DNA of 50,731 nt from a phage. The position numbers and the translations under genes are program-made. The stretch lies in the sequence record PZ445412.1; one strand, given 5' to 3'. The notes beneath the pieces are model-generated. The model did no database searches, had not been told where the DNA came from, and saw only the letters and a list, made by a program, of their open reading frames with translations. This document shows, in pieces, positions 5,672 through 47,871 of this stretch; position 1 is the stretch's first letter; every line of letters starts with the position of its first letter.

Positions 5672-5760
5672 CGTGCTAACACAAAAAACACTTGAACGTT
5701 TAACAAAAAATGCTATATTAAAGCCGTTATTATGACGGCTTTTCTATGAGGGAAAATATT

Positions 5761-15601: not shown

Positions 15602-15623
15602 AAATAGCACAAAAGGTTAAAAG
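15602..15623 (+). promoter_or_regulatory. box variant directly upstream of J start
   Basis: AAATAGCACAAAAGGTTAAAAG, 3 nt before ATG, no hairpin. Confidence 0.35.
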
Positions 15624-27521: not shown

Positions 27522-27529
27522 CGGAATTT

Positions 27530-30961: not shown

Positions 30962-31699
30962 ATGGCTAAGGATTTTCAGGACAAAGCAACCATTGATACT
31001 TTTGAGCCGGAAATGGATTTTCATGAATTGCAACACGGCAGATATTCAGATATTGCGTTGCGTTCAGGTGGTCATTATCAGCCAGTTAGAGAAAACCCAA
31101 TGTTCAAGGTTAGCGGCAACCGTTACGCCGGAAGTAAGACACCTGATGTTGTGCGTGATTTGTGGGAAACGCCAGATGAAATTGTAGAATATTTGGCTGA
31201 ACGTTACGGCAAATACGATCTTGATGCAGCCGCAAGCGAAAACAACAAGAAATGCGATAAGTTTTACAGCAAGGAAACAAACTGCTTAAAACGTTGGTGG
31301 GGTAGCAATAAGCATGTTTGGCTCAATCCACCATACAGCAATCCAGATCCGTTTGTGTTAAAAGCAATTGAGCAGATGGAACACGGAAACCAGATTGATA
31401 TTTTACTTCCGGCTGACAACTCAACAGCATGGTTTAGCGATGCACAAAAACACGCGGCTGAAATTATCTGGATCACTGGCGAAACATGGGAAGAAGAAGG
31501 AAAACAATATTCCCGCACTGGTCGAGTATCGTTTATTTCTGGAATGACAGGTGAACCAGTTAGCGGAAACAATAAAGGAAGCGTGATTTTTATCATGCGA
31601 CAACTGAAAGAAGGTGAGCAACAACAAACTCATTATGTGCCAATTAGTGAAATTTGCCCTTCTGTTGAGAACAAACGCACAAAAGCGCGGAGTATTTAA
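30962..31699 (+). CDS. dam: DNA N6-adenine methyltransferase (phage Dam type)
   Basis: Catalytic NPPY motif (WLNPPYSNPDP) and upstream DLDAAAS motif. Confidence 0.75.
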   Translation: MAKDFQDKATIDTFEPEMDFHELQHGRYSDIALRSGGHYQPVRENPMFKVSGNRYAGSKTPDVVRDLWETPDEIVEYLAERYGKYDLDAAASENNKKCDKFYSKETNCLKRWWGSNKHVWLNPPYSNPDPFVLKAIEQMEHGNQIDILLPADNSTAWFSDAQKHAAEIIWITGETWEEEGKQYSRTGRVSFISGMTGEPVSGNNKGSVIFIMRQLKEGEQQQTHYVPISEICPSVENKRTKARSI

Positions 31700-34469: not shown

Positions 34470-34855
34470 AAAGAAAATTACTGGCTATTATGATGTGCAT
34501 TGCTCTTTCTGGTTGTTCAGCTTCAAGCGTGTTACCTGGTCTGATTGGTAGCAAGCCTGATATAACGGCACAGGCTGGAGCGGAGAATGTGAAACAGACT
34601 GTTGGTGTAACCGCAAAGCAGGATACATCAAGCAAGCAGAAAACCACATTCAAAGAATCGGCAGTTGGCGAGGTTGACACGTCTAATAAAAAGCAGGTGA
34701 GCACTTCAAGCATTAAGGCAGAAAACATCACAGCGGAAAGAATAGAGATCCGCAATAATGATGGTCTTAATGTTCCGGCAATCGCAATGGGTATATTGAT
34801 GTTTATTGCGGGTATGTTGGCGGGTTGGTCACTGAAACGAAATAAGGCGGCATAA
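34466..34855 (+). CDS. unimolecular spanin (u-spanin)
   Basis: Lipobox LSGC at N-terminus plus C-terminal TM helix; last gene of lysis cassette. Confidence 0.65.
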
Positions 34856-34871
34856 GCCGCCTTTATTATTA
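34841..34871. terminator. bidirectional terminator between lysis cassette and leftward operon
   Basis: GGCGGC-ataa-GCCGCC flanked by A-run and T-run. Confidence 0.6.
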
Positions 34872-35093
34872 AAAAATGTTGTTCATTAAGTCTTGGAAAG
34901 TATTTTCGCTATAATCCCTTTCCTCAATAATGTGAGCACCTTTCTTTTTTATGTTCCACAACATTTCTTCATATTCACTTCTGTTGATCCCAAAAGTTCT
35001 ACCATCATCAACAAAAGCAGTACCTTTATCGTTGAATGTATCAAATGTGACGTTAACAACGCGAGTGGTTTTGATAGTATATTTCAGAGTCAT
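34869..35093 (-). CDS. hypothetical protein
   Basis: 74 aa; preceded by box, hairpin and TCGAAACGAAAC leader; last gene of leftward operon. Confidence 0.45.
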   Translation of the reverse strand: MTLKYTIKTTRVVNVTFDTFNDKGTAFVDDGRTFGINRSEYEEMLWNIKKKGAHIIEERDYSENTFQDLMNNIF

Positions 35094-35152
35094 GGTTATT
35101 CCCCTTTGTTCGTTTCGTTTCGATGAAACAAATATACCCGATGCGAGATCGG

Positions 35153-35176
35153 GTTTTTTGACAAAAAGTGCTATTC
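35153..35176 (-). promoter_or_regulatory. conserved box plus hairpin element (minus orientation)
   Basis: Reverse complement GAATAGCACTTTTTGTCAAAAAAC; hairpin CCCGAT-ctcgc-ATCGGG; TATATT; TCGAAACGAAACGAAC. Confidence 0.6.
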
Positions 35177-35368
35177 AAAGCGTCTGACGTGAATCAGCAA
35201 TTCACCATCATTGTTTGTCAGTTGGTGCTCTTGATCCTCAAACGCTCGCATATCTGAATACAGGAGAAGCATTAAGGCATAAACAAAATCATCATGCGGA
35301 ATTTGCATTGCTGAACTTTCTTTCAAAATAAGATCTATCAAATGTTGGCTTGCTGAATAATTCTTCAT
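35171..35368 (-). CDS. hypothetical small protein (start uncertain; may begin at 35308)
   Basis: Stop codon TAG is embedded in box 35153-35176 as for other real genes; overlaps 35292-35684 in another frame. Confidence 0.3.
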   Translation of the reverse strand: MKNYSASQHLIDLILKESSAMQIPHDDFVYALMLLLYSDMRAFEDQEHQLTNNDGELLIHVRRFE

Positions 35369-35684
35369 CGCTCATTTTCTCAATGTTCATCATCTCCCAC
35401 ACATAACGATTGGAATCACCTTCCAGGCTATGCAACTCAAAATTAAACGGCCTTTTCATCTTGTTTTTGCACCAGTACACGCAATGAACGCCGTCAAGAT
35501 ATCCATAACCCATCATTCGCGCTATAAACTCTTTGCTTGAGCTTGATGCGAAATAGCGGGGCGTTACCCCCGCATTTTTGGCGAGCCTTTCACATTCACG
35601 GTGTCGGAATATAAATCTTGCTAACTCTTGGCGGTTGAATTTCTCGCGAGACTCGCAAAAGCGATACAGATCTAATAAGAACAT
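35292..35684 (-). CDS. hypothetical protein
   Basis: 130-aa ORF immediately downstream of the 526-aa gene. Confidence 0.45.
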   Translation of the reverse strand: MFLLDLYRFCESREKFNRQELARFIFRHRECERLAKNAGVTPRYFASSSSKEFIARMMGYGYLDGVHCVYWCKNKMKRPFNFELHSLEGDSNRYVWEMMNIEKMSDEELFSKPTFDRSYFERKFSNANSA

Positions 35685-35686
35685 GA

Positions 35687-37267
35687 TTACCCCATTAACG
35701 CCGGATTGACATAAACAAATTTACCCACGCTGCAAACATAATTCTTTTCTTCAAGCATTGGCAATAATTGTTCCTCAATTCGTTTCATCACGCCTGATTG
35801 ACCTGTAAACGGCTTAACCTTACGAGCACTTTCATAGATCGCTCTTGCATTGGTAACGCCTTTATTTTGACGTGAGATCTTAATGATGATTTCAATTAAC
35901 TTGCTCATTTCGGCATCATCGCCAGCGTGACCGGAAGCATTCGCGGCGTTGATATATGTTTTGCTTAATTCGCTGAACATCACCAAAGCCTCTTGCATTG
36001 TCTCAACTTCAATTTCTCGCGACTTTTGCGGCGTACCGTTTGGATTAAACCAATTGCGGATCGTGTGCAATACTGACGCAATGCGGATCACTTGCTTATC
36101 CATTTTACCCAAAGCACCACGCAACATTGTATGTGAATATTTCCCGCCGTCTGCTAAATCTGGCTCTAATTGCTGTCGAGCAATATTAAGAACACGCATT
36201 GCAGAACGTGACGGCTTCAATACAACATTTTGTTCAGTCATGATGTTATGAATCAACTGAAAATATTGCGCCTTTAATTCTTTATCAACTGGCGTGTAAT
36301 CAAGATCACCATTTTCATCAATAAATACACGCTCGCCTAACATTGTTTTTTCACGTACAAGCAAGAAACGTTCACTAACACCGATACCCCGCGCCCCTGC
36401 ATCCATGATCCCTTTTATCGTTTCATCCTGGGCAATTACGCTCATGCAGCCCAACGCAACAAAACTCATATTGTTTTCAGAGTTTGCGCGAGCTATTGAA
36501 ACGTGTCCGGCGTCCCATGCTTTTAGAACCAATTCGCTGTTAGTCTTGCGATCACTATTAGCGTAAGTCAATCCGAGTAAGCTGTTGATGCTTGTTGCTT
36601 CATCGGAAATGACAGCAAAGTTACCCTGGCGATTGTTGATCTTTGCTAACCCTTCCGGCGTGGTGTCTGATACCGGAAAAACGATATCGCACATTTTTTC
36701 TAACTTTTCCTCTAATTCCTCCTTTTCCTCAAACAACGCCGCTAACTCAGTGCCGGAACGTTCAGCTTTCAATTCCTTTTCAACGCCTTTTAATTTAGCT
36801 GCGATCTTCTTTCGCTCTTTCTTGCGTTGTTCGTTTATTCGCTCAACTTCACAGACCATTGGCGCAATAGCCAGGCTGTTGATTGCTGACTTACCAGTTG
36901 ACGGCGGCTGACTGGTTACAACATAAAGCGCCGTTGGTTGTTCAGTGCCGTGGTACTCAACCTGGAAACGTCCAACCATAGCGGCGGAAACGCAACCAAT
37001 GAAATGCATATAGGCTGATGATTCAGGAAATTGAACAGATTGCGCAATGCTACGTGACAGTTTACCCACAACATCAACATCATTACCCAAAGAGATCACA
37101 GGATAGCGGTCATTAGCGCCGTTGATATCCTTTACAGGTTCCCAAAAGCTGGACGATTGGCGGTAGCCGTTCGACTGAATAGCAACGCGAAGCGGCGATG
37201 TTCCCTGCGATTCTGCAATGGCTATAACTTGTTGAGGTGTCAATTTGTTGGTGTCAAAGTCAAACAT
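35687..37267 (-). CDS. DUF3987-like P-loop protein (primase-associated helicase-like)
   Basis: 526 aa, Walker-A-like TSQPPSTGKSA; family assignment from memory of P4-alpha C-terminal-like proteins. Confidence 0.4.
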   Translation of the reverse strand: MFDFDTNKLTPQQVIAIAESQGTSPLRVAIQSNGYRQSSSFWEPVKDINGANDRYPVISLGNDVDVVGKLSRSIAQSVQFPESSAYMHFIGCVSAAMVGRFQVEYHGTEQPTALYVVTSQPPSTGKSAINSLAIAPMVCEVERINEQRKKERKKIAAKLKGVEKELKAERSGTELAALFEEKEELEEKLEKMCDIVFPVSDTTPEGLAKINNRQGNFAVISDEATSINSLLGLTYANSDRKTNSELVLKAWDAGHVSIARANSENNMSFVALGCMSVIAQDETIKGIMDAGARGIGVSERFLLVREKTMLGERVFIDENGDLDYTPVDKELKAQYFQLIHNIMTEQNVVLKPSRSAMRVLNIARQQLEPDLADGGKYSHTMLRGALGKMDKQVIRIASVLHTIRNWFNPNGTPQKSREIEVETMQEALVMFSELSKTYINAANASGHAGDDAEMSKLIEIIIKISRQNKGVTNARAIYESARKVKPFTGQSGVMKRIEEQLLPMLEEKNYVCSVGKFVYVNPALMG

Positions 37268-37318
37268 CTAAAAATCTCCTTCTTGTTGCCGCTAATTATA
37301 ACGGCAACATTCTACAGC

Positions 37319-37340
37319 CTTTTAGCAATTCGTGCTATTT
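37319..37340 (-). promoter_or_regulatory. conserved box (GAATTG type) plus hairpin element
   Basis: Reverse complement AAATAGCACGAATTGCTAAAAG; hairpin TGTTGCCG-ttataatta-CGGCAACA with TATAAT in the loop. Confidence 0.6.
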
Positions 37341-37583
37341 GATCGGCTCAACCCTGGCTAATAACTTTCCATCTATAATGCTATGACATTCAAGAGTTTT
37401 AGGATCGAATGCAAGCGAACGATGGAACGTATGACCAATCAGAAAATATGAATGCTTATCCCTGATGCGATAGACCGTTTCACCTTCCTTTAATGAAGAT
37501 ATCTCACTGAAAACAACCTTGTAACGGTATTTTTGCATGGCCTCAGAACGGTGAGGAATGTAATCTTTTTCCGGTAAACTCAT
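37335..37583 (-). CDS. hypothetical protein
   Basis: 82-aa ORF, start overlapping upstream gene stop. Confidence 0.4.
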   Translation of the reverse strand: MSLPEKDYIPHRSEAMQKYRYKVVFSEISSLKEGETVYRIRDKHSYFLIGHTFHRSLAFDPKTLECHSIIDGKLLARVEPIK

Positions 37584-37942
37584 GAGTATTTGGCCTCAAA
37601 CAGATAAGCACCGCCAGCGGCTGAAAATCCAACTTCTTCCCGATACAGCGTGAAACGATCGCCGTTTTCGTCGAACACGTATCCAGCAACAGCACCTAAC
37701 ACGCGCCCTTGTTCGATCTGATAACGCTTATCGGCCTTGAAAGTTTTCTTGATCTGCATGGAGTGATTTACCCATTTGCAAAGGATTGTTTTTGTCTTGA
37801 CTTGACGGAAAGTCATTCCGGTTAAATTGGCGTGAATCCATTTCCCATCTAACTTAACGAAAGTATCATCATTTTCATCAACGCGTGCCTTGTATAGACG
37901 GTTATCAGATCCGATAAGTTTAATTGATTTGAATTTAGCCAT
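37580..37942 (-). CDS. hypothetical protein
   Basis: Start MAKFKSIK at 37942 with RBS AGGAGA; six-frame ORF extension (to 38035) runs through the box. Confidence 0.45.
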   Translation of the reverse strand: MAKFKSIKLIGSDNRLYKARVDENDDTFVKLDGKWIHANLTGMTFRQVKTKTILCKWVNHSMQIKKTFKADKRYQIEQGRVLGAVAGYVFDENGDRFTLYREEVGFSAAGGAYLFEAKYS

Positions 37943-37997
37943 TTGATTTATCTCCTTTTGTTTCGACGAGTGCATTATGCCGGATTCTAGATCCGGC

Positions 37998-38019
37998 GTT
38001 TTAACAAAAAGTGCTATTT
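37998..38019 (-). promoter_or_regulatory. conserved 22-bp box plus hairpin element
   Basis: Reverse complement AAATAGCACTTTTTGTTAAAAC; hairpin GCCGGAT-ctaga-ATCCGGC; CATAATGCAC; TCGAAAC. Confidence 0.6.
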
Positions 38020-38709
38020 CTGATTTGCCAGGCATACAGCAAGCGCAAAGCCGCGCGGAGTGAGTGAGCGGATCAGCTTTGTGCGCTTAGACTTGCCGCC
38101 GAGCTTTTGCCAGCCTGGATTGTTGTTCCCTGTTGGCAATACTGCGTTTGTATCCGGCATCACAAAGCCGTTACCCGTCCAAAGACAAGTTTTTTTGGTG
38201 TACGCATCGCGAGCGGGAATGATTTCAGGAAAGTGAGGATGTTTATCATCTTCCGGCAATAGACCGCCAAACGCGCAAGGATGAAATATAAAATCAGGTT
38301 GCCGCCACATCGACGACAGGACGCTAACAGGATTCTCGATCATGTATGGCACATTGAACCAATCCGCAATTTCAGCCGCAATCTTGCATGTTGAAACGGC
38401 CTTATCCTGGAATAGCGGATCACGTTCACGCTTTGCGGCAAAGTGACGCGAACCGCTAACAGCTAAATCAGTGCATGGAGGAAATGCAATCACAAAATCA
38501 GGCTTTCCGTAAACCTCATTGCGAGCCTTAAAGCTGAAATCTGAATCAATCCAAACGTTTACATACTCAATGTTGGGATGACTTACGCGCACTGAATGGT
38601 AATCACCATGATCGGCATCATCATAATTGAAACAGATTACTTTGTGACCACGTTCAGCCCACGGCAACGCATCATAACCGGAACCGCTAAAAAGAGAAAA
38701 AACTAACAT
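38014..38709 (-). CDS. putative C5-cytosine DNA methyltransferase-like protein (short)
   Basis: LFSGSG (motif I-like), FPPC with catalytic-type Cys, IENP (ENV-like); start MLVFSLF at 38709 with RBS AAGGAT; only about 231 aa. Confidence 0.35.
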   Translation of the reverse strand: MLVFSLFSGSGYDALPWAERGHKVICFNYDDADHGDYHSVRVSHPNIEYVNVWIDSDFSFKARNEVYGKPDFVIAFPPCTDLAVSGSRHFAAKRERDPLFQDKAVSTCKIAAEIADWFNVPYMIENPVSVLSSMWRQPDFIFHPCAFGGLLPEDDKHPHFPEIIPARDAYTKKTCLWTGNGFVMPDTNAVLPTGNNNPGWQKLGGKSKRTKLIRSLTPRGFALAVCLANQK

Positions 38710-38816
38710 ACTTAAATCCTTTGTGTATGGCCTTGTAAGGCGTTTTGTTTGGTGGTGTCGCAACTGTATTGGTTGCGACCTGAAATCGCGACACGATGCG
38801 AAACAGGCCGCTAATT

Positions 38817-39053
38817 TTAGAATGGGAAACAGCGCTTGCAAGATGGATCGAAGTTACAACCGCAATCATTGATTATTGCATTAGGATCAGCAAGCATCAC
38901 GCTACTTTCTTGATCCATATCCATAGCGCCTAATGCGTCATCAAGCGTTATTTCAAGATAGGCAACTTTGAGCGCCCACTCTTTGTTAAGTCCAGCCGCC
39001 TCCGCTTCATGTAGGCGAGCAAAGAAAGCATCTTGAACCATGATTAACTCCAT
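38817..39053 (-). CDS. hypothetical protein
   Basis: 78-aa ORF in leftward operon. Confidence 0.4.
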   Translation of the reverse strand: MELIMVQDAFFARLHEAEAAGLNKEWALKVAYLEITLDDALGAMDMDQESSVMLADPNAIINDCGCNFDPSCKRCFPF

Positions 39054-39265
39054 TTCTCGATCAGGAAAGAAAGATCATCAACAAGCGCGTAAGCATCGCT
39101 TTCAGTCATGCGTCGGATTTTGCCTCCTGGATGTTCGCCCACAGCGTAACCAGTTTTTACGCGGGTAATCGTTAACTGATGGAATCCAGAAGCGCGATCC
39201 ATTTTCAAAACTACTTTCCCGTGAGCTTTGACAATGTTCATGATGGATTCAGTTTTCAGTTTCAT
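39044..39265 (-). CDS. hypothetical protein
   Basis: 73 aa; preceded by GAATTG-type box 39320-39343. Confidence 0.45.
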   Translation of the reverse strand: MKLKTESIMNIVKAHGKVVLKMDRASGFHQLTITRVKTGYAVGEHPGGKIRRMTESDAYALVDDLSFLIEKWS

Positions 39266-39319
39266 TTTTGATTCTCCATTTTGTTTGTGTGAAAGTATGA
39301 TACCAATCAGAGCGATATC

Positions 39320-39343
39320 GTTTTTAGCAATTCGTGCTATTTA
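39320..39343 (-). promoter_or_regulatory. conserved box (GAATTG type)
   Basis: Reverse complement AAATAGCACGAATTGCTAAAAAC; followed by TGGTATCATACT. Confidence 0.5.
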
Positions 39344-39487
39344 CGGCGATAAACGGATATCCTGTTAAATCTGCGGGTCTGTATTTCTTGTGCGGCCTCC
39401 ACCAATTAACATCTTTTGACAGCATGAAAACCTTGTTGCCGACAATTTGATAAAAGCAACCATTTTCCACATTCTTAAACAGATTTT

Positions 39488-39721
39488 TCACAACCTAACC
39501 TCATGATATTCGATGAATTCTTGCACATATGAGCATTCTCGCGGCGACTCCTGGCCTTTTAGAACTTCACAACCACCATTGAACAGATAGCAGTGCTGGC
39601 AAAGGTTGCCGCCCACGTTTTCCTCAGCGATCTGAATTCCGGTACACAAACCGCCACCAAACCTATGAGGAAAATCGTAAGCCTGGCAGCGGCACGTTGC
39701 TTGATGCCGCTTACGTTTCAT
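39488..39721 (-). CDS. hypothetical Cys-rich (zinc-binding-like) protein
   Basis: 77 aa with about 9 Cys (CRC...C...CxxC...C...C). Confidence 0.4.
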   Translation of the reverse strand: MKRKRHQATCRCQAYDFPHRFGGGLCTGIQIAEENVGGNLCQHCYLFNGGCEVLKGQESPRECSYVQEFIEYHEVRL

Positions 39722-39990
39722 TAGATGTTCTCGCTAATAAACTGGATAACCTGGCGAAGATGTTTTTCATCCTTAATTGTCGCTGGTAATTCTTCCTTAA
39801 CTTCTTGGCTTAGATAGATATTACCTTTCCATGTAAAACTACCATCATCATTAATGTAATAAGAGCAAAGCCATTCGCAATCATTATCAGCCTCCCAAAT
39901 GCACAATACATCCATATCATTAAATTGCTCAACGCTTAACTCAATGCCACGTTTGCCAGCGAAGTTAGTAGTTGTTTTTGATACCATCAT
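39721..39990 (-). CDS. hypothetical protein
   Basis: 89 aa; preceded by box 40045-40067 and TCGAAACGAACCGGAG leader. Confidence 0.45.
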   Translation of the reverse strand: MMVSKTTTNFAGKRGIELSVEQFNDMDVLCIWEADNDCEWLCSYYINDDGSFTWKGNIYLSQEVKEELPATIKDEKHLRQVIQFISENI

Positions 39991-40044
39991 TTTTAGATTC
40001 TCCGGTTCGTTTCGATGAATGTATTATGCCAAAACAAACCGGAT

Positions 40045-40067
40045 CGCTTTTAACAAAAAGTGCTATT
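40045..40067 (-). promoter_or_regulatory. conserved 22-bp box element
   Basis: Box then GGCATAATACA and TCATCGAAACGAACCGGAG leader. Confidence 0.55.
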
Positions 40068-40261
40068 TAGTCAGATTCCATTACGATGACCGGATCAAGA
40101 CGTTCAAGCACGACTTTGAAATCTGCGTAAAAAGTCGGGCGGCGTTTTGTCAATTCCTCATAGGTATCAGTTGCCAGGCAAGCGTGATCACCTTCATAGC
40201 ACACAACGCGTTTACCGTTGGCGCGGCTGATTGCAACCACGCGGTAAGTGTTCTTGCTCAT
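40067..40261 (-). CDS. hypothetical protein
   Basis: 64-aa ORF, coupled to neighbours. Confidence 0.4.
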   Translation of the reverse strand: MSKNTYRVVAISRANGKRVVCYEGDHACLATDTYEELTKRRPTFYADFKVVLERLDPVIVMESD

Positions 40262-40491
40262 GAAATCACCTCAATTTCGCAAAGATGATCGACGCCAGGC
40301 GCATAAACCCCGCTTTTATCATTAGTGACGCAGAGGCAAAGAGACAATCCGCGATTATCAACGATGTGCAGCCAATCCATGCGGGTATAAAGAATTTCGT
40401 ATTCGCGCTCACTGTCAAAAGTCCAAACGCCAATGAATTCACCAAGCGCCTTAACTCTTACCTTCTTGCCTACAAATTTTTGATCGTTCAT
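40258..40491 (-). CDS. hypothetical protein
   Basis: 77-aa ORF, ATGA overlap with upstream gene. Confidence 0.4.
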   Translation of the reverse strand: MNDQKFVGKKVRVKALGEFIGVWTFDSEREYEILYTRMDWLHIVDNRGLSLCLCVTNDKSGVYAPGVDHLCEIEVIS

Positions 40492-40713
40492 TTATTCATC
40501 CTCAACAGTTTCAAACACGGTATTAAATGCCAGAAGTTTAAATTTCTTGCCAGGCTCAACAACCTGAATATTCCAGGTAATTCCGCCGTGATATGCGACC
40601 ATATCATCAATATCGACGGTGATTTGTGCGCCCTTCTTGAATAAACCTTTCTCATGAGTAGCGTCACGTTCAGTAACTACAGTTTCGAATTGCGTTTGTT
40701 GTTCAAAGTTCAT
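40492..40713 (-). CDS. hypothetical protein
   Basis: 73 aa; preceded by box 40769-40790, hairpin and CAACCAATCAGGAG leader. Confidence 0.45.
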   Translation of the reverse strand: MNFEQQTQFETVVTERDATHEKGLFKKGAQITVDIDDMVAYHGGITWNIQVVEPGKKFKLLAFNTVFETVEDE

Positions 40714-40768
40714 CGTTGATTCTCCTGATTGGTTGATGCGTGTATTATGCCGGAATTAGATCCGGCAC

Positions 40769-40790
40769 GTTTAACAAAAAGTGCTATTTC
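40769..40790 (-). promoter_or_regulatory. conserved 22-bp box plus hairpin element
   Basis: Box; hairpin GTGCCGGA-tctaat-TCCGGCAC; ATAATACACGCATCAACCAATCAGGAG. Confidence 0.6.
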
Positions 40791-40933
40791 AAAACACAAA
40801 ATGCCCTGGCGCTAAAAGTATTATCTTTGACTATTTGCCGCGCCTCCAGGCAACGAGCTTTGCTGTGAAATTCTTGCGTTGTTACCGCCTCACCTTGCAT
40901 TGTTTGAAGCGCAATAATTAGCACGTAAATCAT
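40784..40933 (-). CDS. hypothetical small protein (49 aa)
   Basis: ATG overlaps stop of upstream gene (ATGA); its TAG stop is embedded in box 40769-40790; below the 60-aa track cutoff. Confidence 0.35.
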   Translation of the reverse strand: MIYVLIIALQTMQGEAVTTQEFHSKARCLEARQIVKDNTFSARAFCVLK

Positions 40934-41169
40934 TTTTCCTTTCCTTCATTGTATGTAAGGTTAATGTGAATTGATGCACTTCCGACAATTTCAGCGGTTC
41001 CAATCTCAACCATGTATATCAATTCATGGCGGCTAAATGATGTGTACGCAGGGAAGCCGTCAACAATGCGCATAACCGGAAGTTCACTGTATTTTGTGTT
41101 AGGCACTGCATATTCATTGCCAGTGCTCTTAATGCGTATAAGAATCATTTTATTCTCCCACGATCCCAA
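40930..41169 (-). CDS. hypothetical protein
   Basis: 79-aa ORF. Confidence 0.4.
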   Translation of the reverse strand: MGSWENKMILIRIKSTGNEYAVPNTKYSELPVMRIVDGFPAYTSFSRHELIYMVEIGTAEIVGSASIHINLTYNEGKEK

Positions 41170-41434
41170 AGATAGAAATTATTGAGTTTGTACGACTCCG
41201 GCGATACTTGCGCATAACAAACGTTAAGTTTTCGCCTTGCTGATGACCTAGCGTGATCGGCATTTCAGAACCATCACCGAATTCATCACCAATCTTTTTT
41301 GGCTTTTCTCGCCACGCGCAAATAAAACCAAATTTATCACGCGTGATATAGCGGTATATGTTAGGAAGGGGCAATTTCAACCCCTCGAAATCAACCTGTT
41401 GCGTGTAACTGCGAAAATTAAGCGTGGAATTCAT
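41150..41434 (-). CDS. hypothetical protein
   Basis: 94-aa ORF. Confidence 0.4.
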   Translation of the reverse strand: MNSTLNFRSYTQQVDFEGLKLPLPNIYRYITRDKFGFICAWREKPKKIGDEFGDGSEMPITLGHQQGENLTFVMRKYRRSRTNSIISIFGIVGE

Positions 41435-41573
41435 ACATCACCTCACCAAATTCACCAACGATTTGAGCCTTATAAAAACCGCCTTTACTTGCAATGTTAT
41501 ATGCTGCGTGCATTGGCATTTCGAATTGTTCAGCTTTGCTGTTTTCGTGCTCCCAGGTAATCAGTACGACCAT
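41418..41573 (-). CDS. hypothetical small protein, first gene of leftward operon
   Basis: Start MVVLITWEHE at 41573 with RBS GAGGAT after box 41629-41650. Confidence 0.4.
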   Translation of the reverse strand: MVVLITWEHENSKAEQFEMPMHAAYNIASKGGFYKAQIVGEFGEVMYEFHA

Positions 41574-41628
41574 TTTGTAATCCTCAATTCGTTTCGATGA
41601 AGTAATCATAGCAATTCGTGACTGATTG

Positions 41629-41650
41629 GTTTTAACAAAAAGTGCTATTC
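41629..41650 (-). promoter_or_regulatory. conserved 22-bp box, first element of leftward operon
   Basis: Box followed by CCAATCAG, CACGAATTGCTA and TCATCGAAACGAATTGAGG. Confidence 0.55.
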
Positions 41651-41656
41651 ATGCGA

Positions 41657-41684
41657 TAGACCGATTGGTCTAGACCGTTTGGTC
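41657..41684. promoter_or_regulatory. two abutting 14-bp palindromes (operator-like)
   Basis: AGACCGATTGGTCT and AGACCGTTTGGTCT just upstream of the first leftward box. Confidence 0.55.
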
Positions 41685-41721
41685 TAATGAACACATCGTT
41701 TTCTGTATCGAACGGATTCAC

Positions 41722-41815
41722 GATCACGTTATGCGATCACAATATGATCATGTTGATGATTGATGTGTGAGTTGATTTGATTTTATTTGATGGGATTTGA
41801 TTAGATTTGAGTAGC
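41722..41815. repeat. GATC cluster plus 10-bp-phased ATTTGA iterons (candidate origin or protein-binding array)
   Basis: Three GATC within 30 bp; ATTTGA at 41775, 41785, 41795, 41805 with exact 10-bp spacing. Confidence 0.6.
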
Positions 41816-42248
41816 TAGTGAGCAGAAATAATCACACCTTGCCGATCAGAGAAAACTTTTCCCGCAAAACATCACTCCAGGCTAGCTCTTGTCTCAATCT
41901 GTTTTCTGCTGTCTCAATTCGCACATTCCGCAAAAAAGCGAAACGGTTCACAAACAGAAAGAACAAATAAATCACCTATATAATAATAATAAAATCAACT
42001 AGTTAGTTATATATATCTATTTATGGTTATATATCTGTCTTAGTTGTTCTGTCTATATAGGCATACCCTGGTATATTTCAATTTATATATTGATATTGGT
42101 ATCTATGGGTATATATATCTATATATGCTCGATTTCCGGCGCAAACTGGTGAACAGGCGAAAAAGACAAGCGTTTTCATTGCTTTGCGTTGAAATTTGTC
42201 TCAAATCGCATATTGAAATGTATTAAGAACCAAAAGAACTTGACACGT

Positions 42249-42275
42249 TATAGAACAAGTTATAACATTCACGGC
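42249..42275 (+). promoter_or_regulatory. sigma70-like promoter candidate for rightward early genes
   Basis: TTGACA, 15-nt spacer, TATAAC; followed by ACCAATCAGGAGG leader. Confidence 0.35.
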
Positions 42276-42304
42276 GTACCAAAAACCAATCAGGAGGAAA
42301 AACA

Positions 42305-43405: not shown

Positions 43406-43427
43406 AAATAGCACTTTTTGTTAAAAC
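43406..43427 (+). promoter_or_regulatory. conserved 22-bp box plus hairpin element
   Basis: Box; hairpin GGGGT...ACCCC enclosing TTGACATAATT; TCGAAACGAAACGAGG. Confidence 0.6.
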
Positions 43428-43482
43428 TCAATTGGGGTGGTTTGACATAATTACCCCATCGAAACGAAACGAGGAAAATAAA

Positions 43483-43740
43483 ATGTTTGAACTGAAACGC
43501 GTAACTGTTGAGATCCTGAATGATGGCTCTTACGATGGAATGAAACACTTAACCTTCCCGATCCGCATTGAGAATTGCATTGATTATGGTATTGAAGTTG
43601 GAATGGTTGACGTTCCGCTTGATGCACTTATCGCGGCTGGCTATGACAAAGAGAAAGGCCAATGTGCTGATATACCGGATAGCTATGAAAGCGACACGCA
43701 TTTCCCGTTCACATATGGCGAATGCCGGATTGTTGATTGA
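43483..43740 (+). CDS. hypothetical acidic protein
   Basis: Start MFELKRV at 43483 after box, hairpin and TCGAAACGAAACGAGG leader. Confidence 0.45.
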   Translation: MFELKRVTVEILNDGSYDGMKHLTFPIRIENCIDYGIEVGMVDVPLDALIAAGYDKEKGQCADIPDSYESDTHFPFTYGECRIVD

Positions 43741-43812
43741 GGTTATAAAATGAGCAGTTAGCACAATGAGCACGTAATGCAATTCTACCGCCATAGAATA
43801 AAGAAAATTCTC

Positions 43813-43833
43813 AATAGCACGAATTGCTAAAAC
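43813..43833 (+). promoter_or_regulatory. conserved box (GAATTG type)
   Basis: AATAGCACGAATTGCTAAAAC; hairpin GGTAT-agtaatccc-ATACC with TATAGT. Confidence 0.55.
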
Positions 43834-43889
43834 AGAATCTTGGGCTTGCGGTATAGTAATCCCATACCAAACAAATAGAGGATCACAAA

Positions 43890-44204
43890 ATGGAATTAGC
43901 ACGTAACGCGATTTATGGTTTACACCTCAAAGGCGGCAAAGGTTCAACTTATGCGCACCTGTTTCATGTTAACGATCGCGGCCAGGTTGATATTGCAATG
44001 TATGTTGACCAACTGGTTAAAGGTTGTGAGTCCGACAAGTTCAGACCGGACCTGATTGAATACGATCACACATACAGTCATGACCACTGGTTAGATGGTT
44101 ATAAGTTTACAATGCTGGATACCCATGTTATTGACACAGGCAAGTTAACTAATCGAGACTATAAGCGCATGGCTCGAAAGGTAGTTAAACTTAAAGCGCA
44201 ATAG
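43890..44204 (+). CDS. hypothetical protein
   Basis: 104 aa; preceded by GAATTG-type box 43813-43833. Confidence 0.45.
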   Translation: MELARNAIYGLHLKGGKGSTYAHLFHVNDRGQVDIAMYVDQLVKGCESDKFRPDLIEYDHTYSHDHWLDGYKFTMLDTHVIDTGKLTNRDYKRMARKVVKLKAQ

Positions 44205-44219
44205 CACAAAATGTTAAGC
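44200..44219 (+). promoter_or_regulatory. box variant plus hairpin with extended -10
   Basis: AATAGCACAAAATGTTAAGC; hairpin GGTCAT...ATGACC enclosing TGGTATAAT; GCATCAACCAACCAAAGGAG. Confidence 0.55.
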
Positions 44220-44276
44220 GGTCATGTGTCCTGATTGGTATAATGACCGCATCAACCAACCAAAGGAGAAGTAAAA

Positions 44277-44384
44277 ATGTCTAAAGAGTCTATCAAGCAA
44301 TTTCTGAAATACGGTTCTATGATTGTGCTCGCTACCGTTGTGCTGGCTGGCATCGCATATAGCATTATTGAGTTTGCGGGGTAA
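44277..44384 (+). CDS. tiny single-TM peptide (35 aa)
   Basis: MSKESIKQFLKYGSMIVLATVVLAGIAYSIIEFAG; preceded by box variant, hairpin with TGGTATAAT, RBS AAGGAG. Confidence 0.4.
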   Translation: MSKESIKQFLKYGSMIVLATVVLAGIAYSIIEFAG

Positions 44385-44387
44385 TTG

Positions 44388-44930
44388 ATGTTTACGATCA
44401 ACTTATGGGGAAGGGATTATGTTAATCCCTATGTTGTGACAAAACAGCGTTTCGTTATTTTCGACCTGGACGGCACATTGTCAAATGGTGAGCACCGCTT
44501 GCACCTGTTGCCAACGGTTGATTTGCACCTTACTGAAAGCTGGAGTGAGTTTAATCGCGCCGCAAAGGATGATTCACCATTCAGCAATAACATTGCCGTG
44601 TGCAATGCCATGTTTGATGCCGGATACCTGGTTATCATCCTAACAGGTCGAAGTGATGAAGTTGAATCGGAAACACGAGCATGGTTGGCTGAAAACGGCG
44701 TTTCTTTCGATTGGCTGATTATGCGCCGCGCCAGCGATAACCGGAAAGATACCGTAATCAAAGAGGAAGTTTTACGTACTATCGGACTTGATCGCATTGT
44801 CGCATGTTGGGATGACTCACCAAACGTTATTGCACACCTGCGCGGCCTGGGCTTGACGGTTTACCAGGTCATTGACTACGGAGAGCAGTTGCACGATCAC
44901 TTAAAGTCTCACGGAGTGGAGAAGTTATGA
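44388..44930 (+). CDS. HAD-superfamily phosphatase (polynucleotide 3'-phosphatase-like)
   Basis: HAD motif I FDLDGTLS near N-terminus. Confidence 0.5.
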   Translation: MFTINLWGRDYVNPYVVTKQRFVIFDLDGTLSNGEHRLHLLPTVDLHLTESWSEFNRAAKDDSPFSNNIAVCNAMFDAGYLVIILTGRSDEVESETRAWLAENGVSFDWLIMRRASDNRKDTVIKEEVLRTIGLDRIVACWDDSPNVIAHLRGLGLTVYQVIDYGEQLHDHLKSHGVEKL

Positions 44931-45103
44931 AACTAAAATGCATCGGTGAATATCCAGGTTTTACGGTTGGCAACATGTACAATGCAACAATCGGAATGGA
45001 TCACACATTTGGTTATGAATGCTATGTTGTCATTGATGATGATGGTGATTCACGTAGCATTGATTTCGAAACAGAGGATTTTATAGAGGATCGCTATCTG
45101 TGA
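44927..45103 (+). CDS. hypothetical small acidic protein (58 aa)
   Basis: ATG overlaps upstream stop (ATGA); acidic C-terminus. Confidence 0.35.
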   Translation: MKLKCIGEYPGFTVGNMYNATIGMDHTFGYECYVVIDDDGDSRSIDFETEDFIEDRYL

Positions 45104-45200
45104 TTGAAAACTATGATCCAATGGCGCTTGCTTGGGGGATTGGTGCTTTTATCGTGGCGGTTGTGATTTTCTTATGGGATATCAACAGGAGAGACAAATA

Positions 45201-45380
45201 ATGTATACATACGTTTTACTGATGGTTGTCATGGGCTATCAATCAGGCGGCGCTTTGAGTCATGAGTTTACCGGAATTGAAGCGTGTGAGAATGCAGCAC
45301 AGCAGATGAAAGAGAAGTTGGGGCGCAATCGTGATGTTGTTTATTCATGCGTACCGAAAAACTCAAGTCTCGTTAAATAG
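45201..45380 (+). CDS. hypothetical small protein
   Basis: Start MYTYVLL at 45201 with RBS GGAGAGA; stop embedded in box 45375-45396; a 26-aa hydrophobic peptide ORF (45121-45201) precedes it. Confidence 0.4.
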   Translation: MYTYVLLMVVMGYQSGGALSHEFTGIEACENAAQQMKEKLGRNRDVVYSCVPKNSSLVK

Positions 45381-45427
45381 CACTTTTTGCTAAAACTTGC
45401 TAAGGCACATTTGATAAAGTGTGCCTT
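45375..45427 (+). promoter_or_regulatory. conserved box plus class-B hairpin
   Basis: Box; hairpin AAGGCACA-tttgataaag-TGTGCCTT. Confidence 0.6.
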
Positions 45428-45453
45428 GTCGAGACAAGCAAGGAGAATGACGA

Positions 45454-45708
45454 ATGAAATATTACAGGTGCGGCAGTCTTATTTATCGTGACGATGGGGT
45501 TAATATTTTTGTTGCCTATTATGACAAGATGGAATTTTTTGAATCCATTTACACAAGGCGCGTTTTTAATTCAATGGTTGATGCCGGATTTATGAAAGAG
45601 TGCGAGCCACCAAAAGCGAAGCCGTTTTATAAAAATGTTGATTTCTGGCATAACGCCGTATTGATCACAATTCTGTTAATTCTTTCCGTGGGGTTTATTT
45701 TCTTATGA
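45454..45708 (+). CDS. hypothetical membrane protein (C-terminal TM anchor)
   Basis: RBS AAGGAGAA; C-terminal hydrophobic segment AVLITILLILSVGFIFL. Confidence 0.45.
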   Translation: MKYYRCGSLIYRDDGVNIFVAYYDKMEFFESIYTRRVFNSMVDAGFMKECEPPKAKPFYKNVDFWHNAVLITILLILSVGFIFL

Positions 45709-45887
45709 TGCTTGATAACCGTAAAGAGACTGAAAAAACGATCAGCTATCTGCGTGAGCTTGCCGATAGACTGGAAAACGGCGAAGTGGGATTAAATGAT
45801 ATTACGATTGAAGCGCGTAATATTTGTTGGAACGTTGAAGAAGAAACATTAACACTACAAACTGTTAAGGCGGTAAACAATGGCTAA
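45705..45887 (+). CDS. hypothetical protein
   Basis: 60-aa ORF coupled between membrane protein and kinase. Confidence 0.4.
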   Translation: MMLDNRKETEKTISYLRELADRLENGEVGLNDITIEARNICWNVEEETLTLQTVKAVNNG

Positions 45888-46455
45888 AATTATCATCCTA
45901 AATGCGCCTCCTGGTGCTGGTAAAGATACGATCGGCAAGATGATTTCAGTTTTCGCAGACGGTAAGCAATGCCGCATCATTAGCTTTAAAGAGCCAATGT
46001 TTGACATAGCGTTAGCTATCCTGGGTAAAGAGAACTATCAGCGCTTCATGTTGGCTTATGATGACAGAGAGCAGAAAGAAAGACCGCAAACATTCCTGAT
46101 GGGTATGTCGCCGCGAGAGTTCATGATCTGGATTAGTGAGGATGTGATCAAGCCTAAATTCGGAAGGGATTATTTCGGCGTAAGGTTTAACCAAAAGGTA
46201 AAAGAGTGCGATGCTCCTGTTGTTTGCACTGACGGCGGTTTTCCAGATGAAATTATCGCGCTAATCAATGCTGGTAATGAGGTGAAGTTATGCCGATTGC
46301 ATAGGGACGGATTCACGTTTGCAGGTGATAGCCGCAACTACATTCGAATCAATCCATACTACCAGAAAAACGGATATAGTGAGCACGATTACTTATTAAC
46401 CAATGAAAAGCCGATGATTACAGTTAGCGAAATCATTCGCGATCACCTTAAATAG
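45880..46455 (+). CDS. P-loop nucleotide kinase (dNMP kinase-like)
   Basis: N-terminal P-loop NAPPGAGKDT; stop embedded in box 46450-46471. Confidence 0.55.
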   Translation: MAKIIILNAPPGAGKDTIGKMISVFADGKQCRIISFKEPMFDIALAILGKENYQRFMLAYDDREQKERPQTFLMGMSPREFMIWISEDVIKPKFGRDYFGVRFNQKVKECDAPVVCTDGGFPDEIIALINAGNEVKLCRLHRDGFTFAGDSRNYIRINPYYQKNGYSEHDYLLTNEKPMITVSEIIRDHLK

Positions 46456-46501
46456 CACGAATTGCTAAAACTTGCGCAAGGCCATTTGATATAGTGGCCT
46501 T
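46450..46501 (+). promoter_or_regulatory. conserved box (GAATTG type) plus class-B hairpin
   Basis: Box; hairpin AAGGCCA-tttgatatag-TGGCCTT. Confidence 0.6.
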
Positions 46502-46535
46502 ATTCAAGAGAAGCAACCAATCAGAGGAATAACCG

Positions 46536-46733
46536 ATGAAAATTAAATGCACCAAATCAAACACCATGAATCTGACAGTTGGCGCGATTTACCATATGGA
46601 AGAAGGTGTAAACGGATTTAGCCCAACTGTTACGCATGAATACGGCGGTCACTTCTTCTTAAACGGTAAAGACGGATTATCTGTAAATGTTGGCTCTTTC
46701 GTTCTGGCAGAATTTGAGGTCGTGGAGGAATAA
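46536..46733 (+). CDS. hypothetical protein
   Basis: 65 aa; after box, hairpin and CAACCAATCAGAGG leader. Confidence 0.45.
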   Translation: MKIKCTKSNTMNLTVGAIYHMEEGVNGFSPTVTHEYGGHFFLNGKDGLSVNVGSFVLAEFEVVEE

Positions 46734-46735
46734 AA

Positions 46736-46900
46736 ATGTTTTGGATTCATTCGCCGCAAGGATTGCTTTATGTGCCTGGCGTTGAGTTAGAAGAGCGGCG
46801 CGACGGCGACACGGTGAACATCATAACGAAGGATTCAAAAGGCCATACACTAAAAACGTATGTTTTTAACACTCCGGTTAAGGTTGAAAAAGATGATTAA
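46736..46900 (+). CDS. hypothetical small protein (54 aa)
   Basis: ATG 3 nt after upstream stop; not in the 60-aa track. Confidence 0.35.
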   Translation: MFWIHSPQGLLYVPGVELEERRDGDTVNIITKDSKGHTLKTYVFNTPVKVEKDD

Positions 46901-47036
46901 GATGTGGTTAATATTTATCCTGCTTGTCATAATTGGCAATATTTTGATTGTCGCTAATTGTGTTCCTTTTGGTGGCGCTGTTTTGGGTATGGCTGGTTAT
47001 TACGTTGGGTATAAAGGGAATAAATTAGATGAATAG
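46893..47036 (+). CDS. tiny membrane peptide (47 aa)
   Basis: MIKMWLIFILLVIIGNILIVANCVPFGGAVLGMAGYYVGYKGNKLDE; overlaps neighbours. Confidence 0.35.
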   Translation: MIKMWLIFILLVIIGNILIVANCVPFGGAVLGMAGYYVGYKGNKLDE

Positions 47037-47274
47037 AAAAATGCTGGTACGCGCATTCGCAAAGATTGCTAAAAGATGGGGTGATTCAGCTAAAACACCT
47101 TACACGTTTGGCATGTACGGTTACAAGAATGCTCGCGCATGGGGTCGCATCATTACAGATAACTATGAATCCGAAATGCTGGAGGCTTACGCAAGCTGGA
47201 TTGATACACCGCTAAATGAATGGGGCCAGGCTGAATATGATTGTTTTGCTGATGAAGAAATTTCTTGCTGGTAA
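47029..47274 (+). CDS. hypothetical protein
   Basis: 81-aa ORF. Confidence 0.4.
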   Translation: MNRKMLVRAFAKIAKRWGDSAKTPYTFGMYGYKNARAWGRIITDNYESEMLEAYASWIDTPLNEWGQAEYDCFADEEISCW

Positions 47275-47286
47275 GGAGACTAAACG

Positions 47287-47799
47287 ATGAAAGCTAAAAA
47301 TGATTTTTATAACTACCTGACGAAAGGTCGTGACTATACCGTTTTGAATAGCATTGATACTCTTTACCTGGTTGTTGCTGATAATGGCGTTAGAGTTTGG
47401 CTTGATAAAACGCTTTTCGAAAGCGAGCACCTAAGCAATGCAAAGCGAATAGCAGATGAAGCAAGCGCATTAGCAGAGCGTGAACGAATTCGCGATATAG
47501 TAGCGGAGCAGGTTAGAAATTCTTGTTTGCCTGGTGGCGATATCTTCAAATCAATGCGCGGTGAAATGACGGTTGGAATTAAAGATCGCGTAATTGCAAA
47601 ATCAGTTGATTCTGTAATTGAGAATGCGAAATTCAATGCAATGATTGAATCGGAGCCTAATGAATACATCAAAGTGCTGGAACAATTGCGCGAAGTATTG
47701 CGAGTGCCGGATGGTGAAAACATTGTGACTCATGCAAAGGTTGTAAGAACGTTGGCTGATGCTTTGCTTGACGTTTATCCAGGAATGAAGCGCAAATAG
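47287..47799 (+). CDS. hypothetical protein
   Basis: 170 aa, RBS AAGGAGA; stop embedded in box 47794-47815. Confidence 0.45.
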   Translation: MKAKNDFYNYLTKGRDYTVLNSIDTLYLVVADNGVRVWLDKTLFESEHLSNAKRIADEASALAERERIRDIVAEQVRNSCLPGGDIFKSMRGEMTVGIKDRVIAKSVDSVIENAKFNAMIESEPNEYIKVLEQLREVLRVPDGENIVTHAKVVRTLADALLDVYPGMKRK

Positions 47800-47845
47800 C
47801 ACTTTTTGTTAAAACTTCCGCGAGGACATTTGTTAAAGTGTCCTC
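47794..47845 (+). promoter_or_regulatory. conserved box plus class-B hairpin
   Basis: Box; hairpin GAGGACA-tttgttaaag-TGTCCTC. Confidence 0.6.
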
Positions 47846-47871
47846 ATTGAAGCGAAACAGAGGAAAACGCA

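Follow-up and report, generated by a model that had tools for sequence, protein, structure and literature searches.

The leftward gene block at positions 34869-41573 of the 50,731-nucleotide (nt) phage DNA analysed here (the window) is best read as a non-structural, presumptively early arm made of seven promoter/stem-loop cassettes, with a conserved core half and a variable accessory half; we give this reading a probability of roughly 0.7. By megablast the window is 100% identical over its full length to MZ501059.1, Escherichia phage DanielBernoulli (Bas08 of the BASEL collection; window position = MZ501059.1 position - 536), a T1-like coliphage of the Drexlerviridae, Tempevirinae, Tlsvirus, and the block comprises exactly 20 deposited minus-strand coding sequences (CDS), bas08_0045 to bas08_0064, here called g45 to g64. 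As we envision it, the cassettes would stand head to tail, each serving one to four genes, with a terminator at 34844-34863 ending the block. Host sigma-70 RNA polymerase would use their promoters without phage help, as seen for the orthologue in phage Bas11, and their hairpins would probably attenuate read-through from upstream, a role suggested by assays of the promoter-early stem-loops (PeSLs) of phages phi1 and RB49 and by terminator annotation in T1. The cassettes would also act as recombination linkers through which small genes are swapped among T1-like phages and with RB49-like myoviruses. The promoter-distal half (g46-g54) would then be a core of DNA metabolism, with an MCM-like helicase and two small partners, a C5-methyltransferase, g50, g53 and g54, and the promoter-proximal half (g55-g64, plus g45) would encode dispensable, tiny, soluble accessory proteins, including a barrel of the Gp54 family and a protein of zinc-binding type.

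As a discovery the block is largely ordinary, being already deposited and annotated, with T1 and TLS counterparts already described as small genes; what is new here is the promoter anatomy of the repeat that punctuates it, the kinship of that repeat with PeSLs, the shuffling at cassette level and the fold assignments. A preliminary description, made from the DNA letters, had portrayed a single leftward operon of about 20 tightly packed small genes, mostly without recognisable domains and punctuated by seven boxes; all of this is borne out except the single operon. Sixteen of the 20 CDS encode fewer than 100 amino acids (aa), most abut or overlap a neighbour, commonly by 1-17 nt in ATGA-type junctions (77 nt for g46/g47), and GC skew is negative across the block, in keeping with leftward genes. 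When compared with orthologues in TLS, Brooksby, Stevie, Bas11 and herni, 19 of the 20 open reading frames (ORFs) have non-synonymous divergence (pN) far below synonymous divergence (pS), and we thus regard these 19 as real genes. Conservation extends down to T1 for g46, g47, g48, g50, g53, g54 and g58, and the variable genes are g45, g49, g55-g57 and g59-g64. No membrane proteins or transmembrane segments are predicted among the block ORFs. Searches of Pfam, PHROGs, NCBIfam and PADLOC left most of the ORFs without a recognisable domain: beyond the few assigned below, they fall in PHROGs without assigned function (one has no PHROG match), and NCBIfam and PADLOC gave no significant or useful matches for them. 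The database names of ten small proteins are all "hypothetical" apart from "polyribonucleotide nucleotidyltransferase" and "NADPH-flavin oxidoreductase", which we rejected as obviously spurious. Rfam and tRNA scans yielded nothing but a sub-threshold small nucleolar RNA match (E = 0.095).

Promoter anatomy of the repeat

The box is 20 nt long, and the order of elements in a cassette is AATAGCAC-nnn-TTGyTAAAA, a 19-nt spacer, G-14, TAnnnT, a CA start, a leader, a ribosome-binding site (RBS) and ATG. The pattern AATAGCACnnnTTGnTAAAA has 21 matches genome-wide against 1.27 expected by chance, and exactly seven minus-strand boxes lie within the block or at its edge. Boxes are confined to the non-structural genes; the structural module holds only two degenerate matches, at 5698-5717 (minus) and 15603-15622 (plus), which have no -10 at the fixed distance and are probably relics or chance occurrences. 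Given a background of 0.035 per position, a yAnnnT hexamer follows at 19 nt in 15 of 19 window boxes and at 18 nt in two, and T1 has it at 19 nt in 16 of its 21 boxes; spacers range from 18 to 20 nt with a mode of 19, and usually contain a GC hairpin. Downstream of the -10 the leader CATCGAAACGAAAC is conserved and is followed by a GGAG-type RBS and the start codon, with GGAG and ATG about 30 nt downstream of the start site. In a position matrix of 50 promoters from Bas08, T1, Bas11 and herni, with the hexamer numbered -12 to -7, the box spans -51 to -32 and reaches 2 bits at many positions, G-14, the key extended -10 base, is present in 44, C-1 in 37 and A+1 in 42. A 15-bp dyad, TAGCA-N5-TG(C/T)TA, forms the core of the box, which also contains a weak -35-like yTAAAA; the canonical -35 window holds AAAACn. 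Because each box is paired with a -10 at a fixed distance, we conclude that the block consists of seven transcription units rather than one operon. The boxes are also knit into the genes before them: the TAG of the box (aATAGcac) is the stop codon of g46, g49, g51 and g61, and g55 runs into a box whose TAA (cTAAaa) ends it.

Other promoter types were considered and rejected. TTGyTA does not serve as a canonical -35, since it lies 22 nt from the -10 and alignment with phage JSE puts yTAAAA at -35 with a 19-nt spacer. A sigma-54 (-24/-12) promoter is unsuitable because the TAGCAC-N3-TTGC of the box is 2 nt short of TGGCAC-N5-TTGC and has AG in place of GG, and it is further ruled out by the conserved -10 and CA start downstream. 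Canonical sigma-70 promoters are scarcer in the block than chance predicts, a scan finding 12 against 19.2 expected.

The repeat itself has been reported. The re-annotation of TLS (German et al. 2024, PMC11447400) described a 21-nt repeat, aaATAGCACnnnTTGnTAAAA, some 76 nt upstream of start codons and found also in T1, Rtp and Rogue1, and posed its function as an open question, suggesting a stoperator, an enhancer or an UP element. That account has no fixed -10, G-14, hairpins or link to PeSLs. The anatomy described here offers a concrete and testable answer to the published question.

Hairpins and promoter function

Folding of a 45-nt stretch that starts where the box ends and reaches about +8, with energies compared to dinucleotide shuffles, gave a mean z of -3.16 over 43 promoters, 38 of which had z < -1.5. 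Two classes can be distinguished. Class A comprises GC hairpins, many of them capped by a GNRA loop, that are contained in the spacer and stop at the -10, after which come the T-rich -10 and discriminator; in class B the -10 is placed in the hairpin loop. Several class A hairpins are annotated as rho-independent terminators in T1 and Stevie, and the cassette before the DUF3987 gene (g48) has a class B hairpin in Bas08, Bas11 and T1 alike, with stems of differing sequence.

All seven cassettes are on the minus strand. Cassette 1 (41574-41654; box 41630-41649), with its 19-nt spacer, TATGAT, leader and RBS, would drive g64-g61, and cassette 2 (40714-40793; box 40769-40788), with hairpin GCCGGA/TCCGGC (z = -4.4) and CATAAT, would drive g60-g58. 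Cassette 3 (39991-40072; box 40048-40067), which has the extended -10 TGGCATAAT, would serve g57-g55, and cassette 4 (39266-39346), whose box at 39322-39341 is of the GAA type with a perfect dyad, TAGCA-N5-TGCTA, and whose -10 is TATCAT, would serve g54, g53 and dcm (g51). The box of cassette 5 (37943-38023; box 37999-38018) supplies the dcm stop codon noted above and is followed by hairpin GCCGGAT/ATCCGGC (z = -2.8) and CATAAT ahead of g50-g49. In cassette 6 (37268-37344; box 37320-37339), ahead of g48-g46, TATAAT sits in the loop of GTTGCCG/CGGCAAC (z = -4.3), and cassette 7 (35094-35180; box 35156-35175), ahead of g45, combines a terminator-like hairpin at 35136-35154 with TATATT. The same box cassettes are used by a rightward small-gene array at 43407-47858 (plus), where the hairpins are mostly of class B, as at 45376, 46451 and 47795 (a long hairpin with the -10 in its loop, z = -3.9 to -6.2).

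Experimental information comes from Bas11, in which gene 54 immediately follows a cassette of the same layout (box, 19 nt, TATCAT) in the corresponding leftward block. Zhang 2024 (Nature; PMC11578894) detected Gp54-FLAG in uninfected MG1655 after cloning "gp54 with its native promoter", and the phage part of the primer used, TZ-58, starts TAGCACTTTTTGTTAAAACC, which places its start inside the box (TAGCAC). The same study found that Bas11 escape mutations immediately upstream of gene 54 reduced its expression, and that the phage tolerates deletion of gene 54 and of its neighbours. Because Gp54-FLAG was made in uninfected cells, the cassette appears to act as a promoter for host RNA polymerase without a phage factor. 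Host-type promoters, together with the lack of boxes in the structural module, make it plausible that the leftward block belongs to the early class.

Proposed kinship with PeSLs and shuffling of small genes

PeSLs are repeated elements of T4-like phages of the RB49/phi1/JSE type (Arbiol 2010, PMC2839356; Comeau 2014, PMC4122927). The motif includes the stop codon of the gene before it and closes at its 3' end with a Shine-Dalgarno (SD) sequence and start codon, and its stem-loop mostly overlies the -10 or separates it from the -35; PeSLs have been shown to work as promoters and as terminators, and they mediate modular shuffling (PMC2839356, PMC4122927). Neither paper mentions T1-like phages. 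Distant blastn matches led to RB49-like T4-type phages, and in one region of the T4-type myovirus JSE (NC_012740.1, 119109-124141) homologues of g45, g51 and g57 (45%, 58% and 68.5% identical, respectively) stand behind PeSL cassettes. The JSE motif consists in its 5' part of an AT-rich stretch, TTGACA, a 17-nt spacer with a GC hairpin, and TATAAT, and in its 3' part of ACACnCAT(AC)CGAAACGA..., GGAGAATCAAA and ATG. When seven Bas08 and six JSE cassettes were aligned with MAFFT, the -10, leader and RBS matched nearly base for base, and the box TTGTTAAAA aligned with JSE TTGTTGACA, the Bas08 spacer being 2 nt longer. Because JSE homologues stand behind nearly matching cassettes, we conclude that gene cassettes have been exchanged between phage families. 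For two Stevie genes, "Phi1 like" had already been noted by the annotators of that phage.

The likeness extends to organisation. Both PeSLs and the Bas08 cassettes are repeated intergenic units ahead of small ORFans, with the upstream stop codon in the motif, a stem-loop at the spacer or -10, then SD and start codon; both have indel or replacement breakpoints at the cassettes, and three genes are common to the block and JSE. In Bas08 a repeated intergenic, sigma-70-like, presumptively early promoter stands before small ORFs, as PeSLs would require, with a non-canonical -35 (yTAAAA, 19-nt spacer), and the position of the stem-loop (in both classes), the stop codon in the motif and the breakpoints at motifs (the last subject to alignment-edge bias) agree as well. 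The T1-like cassettes differ from PeSLs in having a GC-containing dyad box instead of an AT-rich UP region and TTGACA, a spacer of 19 rather than 17 nt, and a conserved G-14; moreover, PeSLs are marked by promoter and terminator activity and by minicircle formation, whereas for the T1-like cassettes the evidence is the sequence and, indirectly, the expression of Bas11 Gp54-FLAG. We suggest, tentatively and short of even odds, that the T1-like boxes are the upstream half of PeSL-type cassettes homologous to the RB49-like ones, drawn from one mobile pool of early genes, with the -35/UP region replaced by a dyad operator. If this is true, two unrelated families of virulent coliphages share a mobile cassette pool that spreads accessory genes such as the CapRel trigger Gp54, and the link to PeSLs would explain how tiny accessory genes, defence triggers included, move between phage families.

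Exchange at the level of cassettes was also visible among close relatives. Comparison of the block with seven Tlsvirus genomes revealed 16 distinct structural breakpoints, 7 of them in the seven cassettes, whose share of the sequence is 9.4% (binomial P = 3.5e-4). Cassette 1 is duplicated around the insertion of an extra 441-nt gene in Brooksby, 011D2, UTK0007 and Henu4_2; breakpoints fall at 40788/40789 and 40734, in cassette 2, in Stevie, Henu4_2 and CF1; and small genes are inserted at 40067-40077 in Brooksby, Stevie, 011D2 and Henu4_2. In TLS an HNH endonuclease takes the place of g57, starting exactly at 39991, the edge of cassette 3, and the whole g45 cassette (34865-35171) is missing from TLS, 011D2, UTK0007 and Henu4_2, with a breakpoint inside the box. 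Two cassettes bound the replacement of g61-g64, g62 is precisely missing from Brooksby, 011D2 and UTK0007, and in CF1 the g50/g49 junction has gained a gene of 487 nt. The cassettes form islands of 95-100% identity beside genes that are 50-70% identical, and pS against TLS jumps from cassette to cassette (0.05 for g48, 0.45 for g49-g50, 0.09 for g51).

Several points weigh against our interpretation. The -35-like hexamer is poor and its distance from the -10 is 19 nt, so that promoter strength may hinge on a dyad-binding factor, and a possible source of the Bas11 Gp54-FLAG is read-through of the pBR322 vector. Transcript mapping or timing is absent from the searchable literature for any T1-like phage; because of this the term "early", the start sites and the attenuation by hairpins remain inferences. 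A number of breakpoints lie at plain gene junctions outside cassettes, and the enrichment within cassettes is inflated because alignment ends tend toward the edges of conserved islands. Lastly, the MCM-like fold of g48 is not proof of a replicative role, since BrxL and ComM belong to the same clade.

One could alternatively regard the box as chiefly an operator, a 15-bp dyad near -42 at which a dimeric regulator switches some 20 promoters together. We consider this doubtful as the chief role, although the dyad symmetry, the near-invariant positions (up to 2 bits each) and the overlap of the right half-site with the -35-like hexamer favour it, and the authors of the TLS paper proposed stoperator or enhancer roles (PMC11447400). 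The leads for a regulator are a phage Cro/YdaS-like helix-turn-helix (HTH) protein (27530-28138), which would shut off the early genes, and a host protein such as Lrp, which would activate them. The HTH gene has boxes on both sides, T1 annotates a homologous "transcriptional regulator" beside boxes, and the Lrp consensus yAGhAwATTwTdCTr (PMC5554404) is matched at 13 of 15 positions by boxes of the T type and at 11 of 15 by those of the GAA type in a hand count. However, the Lrp match is a consensus count only, half of the boxes have an imperfect right half, TGTTA, and a cassette that works in uninfected cells does not require a phage activator. An operator is also compatible with the promoter and recombination-linker roles that we prefer; if true, one dimeric regulator (the phage Cro-like HTH protein or host Lrp) could control about 20 promoters together. 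The HTH gene (minus strand) encodes 202 aa (YdaS/Cro-like, PF15943, E = 2.2e-5) and lies between primase and helicase genes; with its flanking boxes at 27528 (minus) and 28148 (plus), its product is a candidate binder of the box dyad.

The variable half and the question of anti-defence

All genes of the block are on the minus strand. The member of the variable half about which most can be said is g60 (40492-40713, 73 aa), a small beta-barrel protein of the Gp54 family, referred to as "Gp60 of Bas8" in Zhang 2024. It matches Pfam PF25180, "phage antiviral trigger protein Gp54", with E = 1.4e-32 (111.7 bits against a cut-off of 27), and the Gp54 structure in PDB 9AXB with E = 1.8e-9. Bas11 Gp54 is a non-essential, six-stranded beta-barrel that activates the toxin-antitoxin defence CapRelSJ46, and the Bas8 homologue was assayed in the same work without activation of CapRelSJ46 (PMC11578894). 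The two share the Pfam family and their location in the leftward block, where each is the first gene to follow a box cassette; they are 42% identical over 45 aa, and g60 differs in having Ala at the critical I25 position, with which its inactivity toward CapRel fits.

Another small protein, g56 (39488-39721, 77 aa, Cys-rich), occurs in T1-like phages only. A set of 5.8 billion proteins contains just 8 clusters of its family, each of them from phage-sized contigs, in which C10, C12, C26, C41, C44, C51, C63 and H19 are invariant, and this pattern of residues suggests that it probably binds zinc, as the preliminary description had supposed. The remaining genes of this half, from the promoter-distal side, are g55 (39324-39491, 55 aa, GTG start); g57 (39721-39990, 89 aa, acidic), whose JSE counterpart is 68.5% identical; g58 (40067-40261, 64 aa), conserved in T1 (54%); g59 (40258-40491, 77 aa), which diverges fast; g61 (40784-40933, 49 aa); g62 (40930-41148, 72 aa), which has no PHROG match; g63 (41150-41434, 94 aa; PHROG 1972); and g64 (41418-41573, 51 aa; DUF7170, PF23776 E = 1.5e-20), with pN/pS of about 0.3-0.4.

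It has been proposed that the whole block forms one early operon and that the main task of its small proteins is to inhibit defences (restriction-modification (RM), CRISPR or abortive infection (Abi)) or host macromolecular synthesis. Consistent with this, the promoters are host-type and factor-independent, sixteen tiny soluble ORFs under purifying selection have no known domains, the promoter-proximal half varies between close relatives and is rapidly exchanged, deletions around Bas11 gene 54 are viable, a C5-methyltransferase is present, and T1 and TLS degrade host DNA through early products. The family of g60 is sensed by CapRel, and the authors of that work speculate that Gp54 may inhibit another defence (PMC11578894). 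However, seven promoters do not make one operon, g48 is a core gene of helicase type, the Bas08 Gp54 homologue is inert towards CapRel, and seven genes are kept down to T1, which is unusual for genes in an arms race; in addition, the BASEL paper found most Drexlerviridae to be very RM-sensitive, with no link to their methyltransferases. No ORF of the block matched a known anti-defence family in Pfam, PHROGs, NCBIfam or PADLOC, and a literature search on anti-defence genes of Drexlerviridae gave nothing relevant. We thus regard the operon-wide version as unlikely. The preliminary description had taken assignment of routine functions as what would speak against it, and there the outcome is divided: core gene g48 acquires a replication-type helicase fold, and the small ORFs mostly stay without a domain. 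Anti-defence or takeover is plausible only for the variable, promoter-proximal half, for which interplay with the host or its defences is our leading guess. The realistic candidates are thereby narrowed to about ten ORFs (g55-g64, g45) in a widely used BASEL model phage.

The conserved half, with a putative helicase and methyltransferase

The largest and most conserved gene is g48 (35687-37267, 526 aa), whose earlier designation as a DUF3987-like P-loop protein is upheld by Pfam (E = 5.9e-43) and by a Walker A P-loop that is invariant among homologues. Against TLS, Brooksby and Stevie it has 0 non-synonymous and 17-23 synonymous differences, the protein being 100% identical; this constraint is unusually strong, the flanking small genes differing by 5-50%. 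Its AlphaFold model (predicted local distance difference test score, pLDDT, 89) has an AAA+ core of the MCM clade and a C-terminal winged helix, and structural alignments cover some 230-265 core residues. We compared it with the MCM-type AAA+ helicases of mobile elements (SCCmec Cch, SaPI5 primase-helicase) and with archaeal and eukaryotic MCM. It differs from these in having no sequence match to PDB chains, either by single sequence or by profile, and in residues 1-100 being helical in the model instead of forming an N-terminal oligonucleotide-binding (OB) fold/zinc domain. Because of this helical N-terminus we call g48 MCM-like and not an MCM; on the strength of the model it is a putative MCM-like AAA+ ATPase or helicase. 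DUF3987 thus gains a fold-level assignment, in phages that borrow the host polymerase.

The second enzyme, g51 (dcm; 38014-38709, 231 aa), had been described as a short C5-methyltransferase-like protein, and its fold and motifs accord with that. Motifs I (FxGxG), IV (PC) and VI (ENP/V) are present, G9-S10-G11, P78-C79 and E125-N126-P127-V128 show no variation across 29 homologues, an alignment with M.HaeIII covers motifs I and IV, and the modelled fold is that of a C5-methyltransferase catalytic domain. It falls below the gathering threshold of PF00145 (15.2 bits against a cut-off of 22), and a profile search against PDB gave E of about 0.3. Fold and motifs are those of M.HhaI, M.HaeIII and DNMT3, from which it differs by its compact 231 aa and a very small target-recognition region; judged by motifs and model, it is a putative C5-cytosine methyltransferase-like enzyme. 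In some records Dcm is longer (259 aa in TLS). Lengths of 225-235 aa predominate among the 5352 homologues, which supports the start that gives 231 aa. A Dam-type N6-adenine methyltransferase is encoded besides at 30962-31699 (PF05869, E = 1.1e-62), so that Bas08 has two DNA methyltransferases.

Of the small genes here, g47 (35292-35684, 130 aa), a core gene, is translationally coupled to g48 and is named "YdbL" or "HTH domain-containing protein" in other records; g46 (35171-35368, 65 aa, acidic) is conserved to T1 (39%). The remaining core genes are g50 (37580-37942, 120 aa, basic), g53 (38817-39053, 78 aa), which is very acidic (net -9) with a C-terminal CxC...CxxC motif, and g54 (39044-39265, 73 aa, basic), present in T1; g49 (37335-37583) encodes 82 aa, and the accessory g45 (34869-35093) 74 aa.

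These assignments bear on a further possibility, that the block is a module for DNA replication and modification whose small ORFs are accessory replication or recombination factors. The MCM-like AAA+ helicase with its winged helix, tightly coupled to g47 and g46 and with them conserved to T1, would suit such a module, as would the C5-methyltransferase and an adjoining repeat- and AT-rich, 650-bp gene-free region that might be an origin, and T1-like phages, having no DNA polymerase, depend on the host replisome (PMC11447400). Nevertheless, phages that are nearly identical differ in ten or eleven of the small genes, some are common to T4-type phages with a wholly different replisome, and gene 54 and its neighbours can be deleted in Bas11, all of which makes this account of the block quite improbable. 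That many of the small ORFs are misannotated non-coding spacer DNA is very improbable, for the pattern fits only the ORF at 38687-38794 (no family match, GTG start, pN/pS 0.5-0.7) and the other 19 have pN well below pS against several relatives, PHROG families, RBS-like sequences and conserved synteny. That ORF, g52 (bas08_0052, 35 aa), has no PHROG match and adjoins a 90-nt indel, relatives carrying a 90-nt insertion at 38817/38818; on the basis of the missing family match and the pN/pS values, we consider it probably spurious, an annotation artefact.

Flanking regions

On its promoter-distal side the block meets convergent rightward lysis genes, and both are closed by the hairpin at 34844-34863, which resembles a bidirectional intrinsic terminator; Stevie has terminators annotated at the equivalent site. 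Upstream of the block, between the leftward and rightward small-gene arrays, lies the gene-free divergent region of about 650 bp (41650-42304), which contains tandem palindromic 14-mers TAGACCG(A/T)TTGGTC (41657-41684), a tandem CGATCACnnTATG (41721-41746), GATTTGA repeats (41774-41810), an AT-rich cluster of TATATATCTAT (42004-42127) and a good canonical promoter, TTGACA-17-TAACAT (42240-42268). It looks like an origin or master control region. Elsewhere in the window, imperfect repeats with a 33-nt period (CTTAATCTGTTG..CAGCGG) occupy 25762-25951, inside a minus-strand gene for 639 aa whose product is probably a lateral tail fibre, the repeats forming a coiled or beta-helical segment of it.

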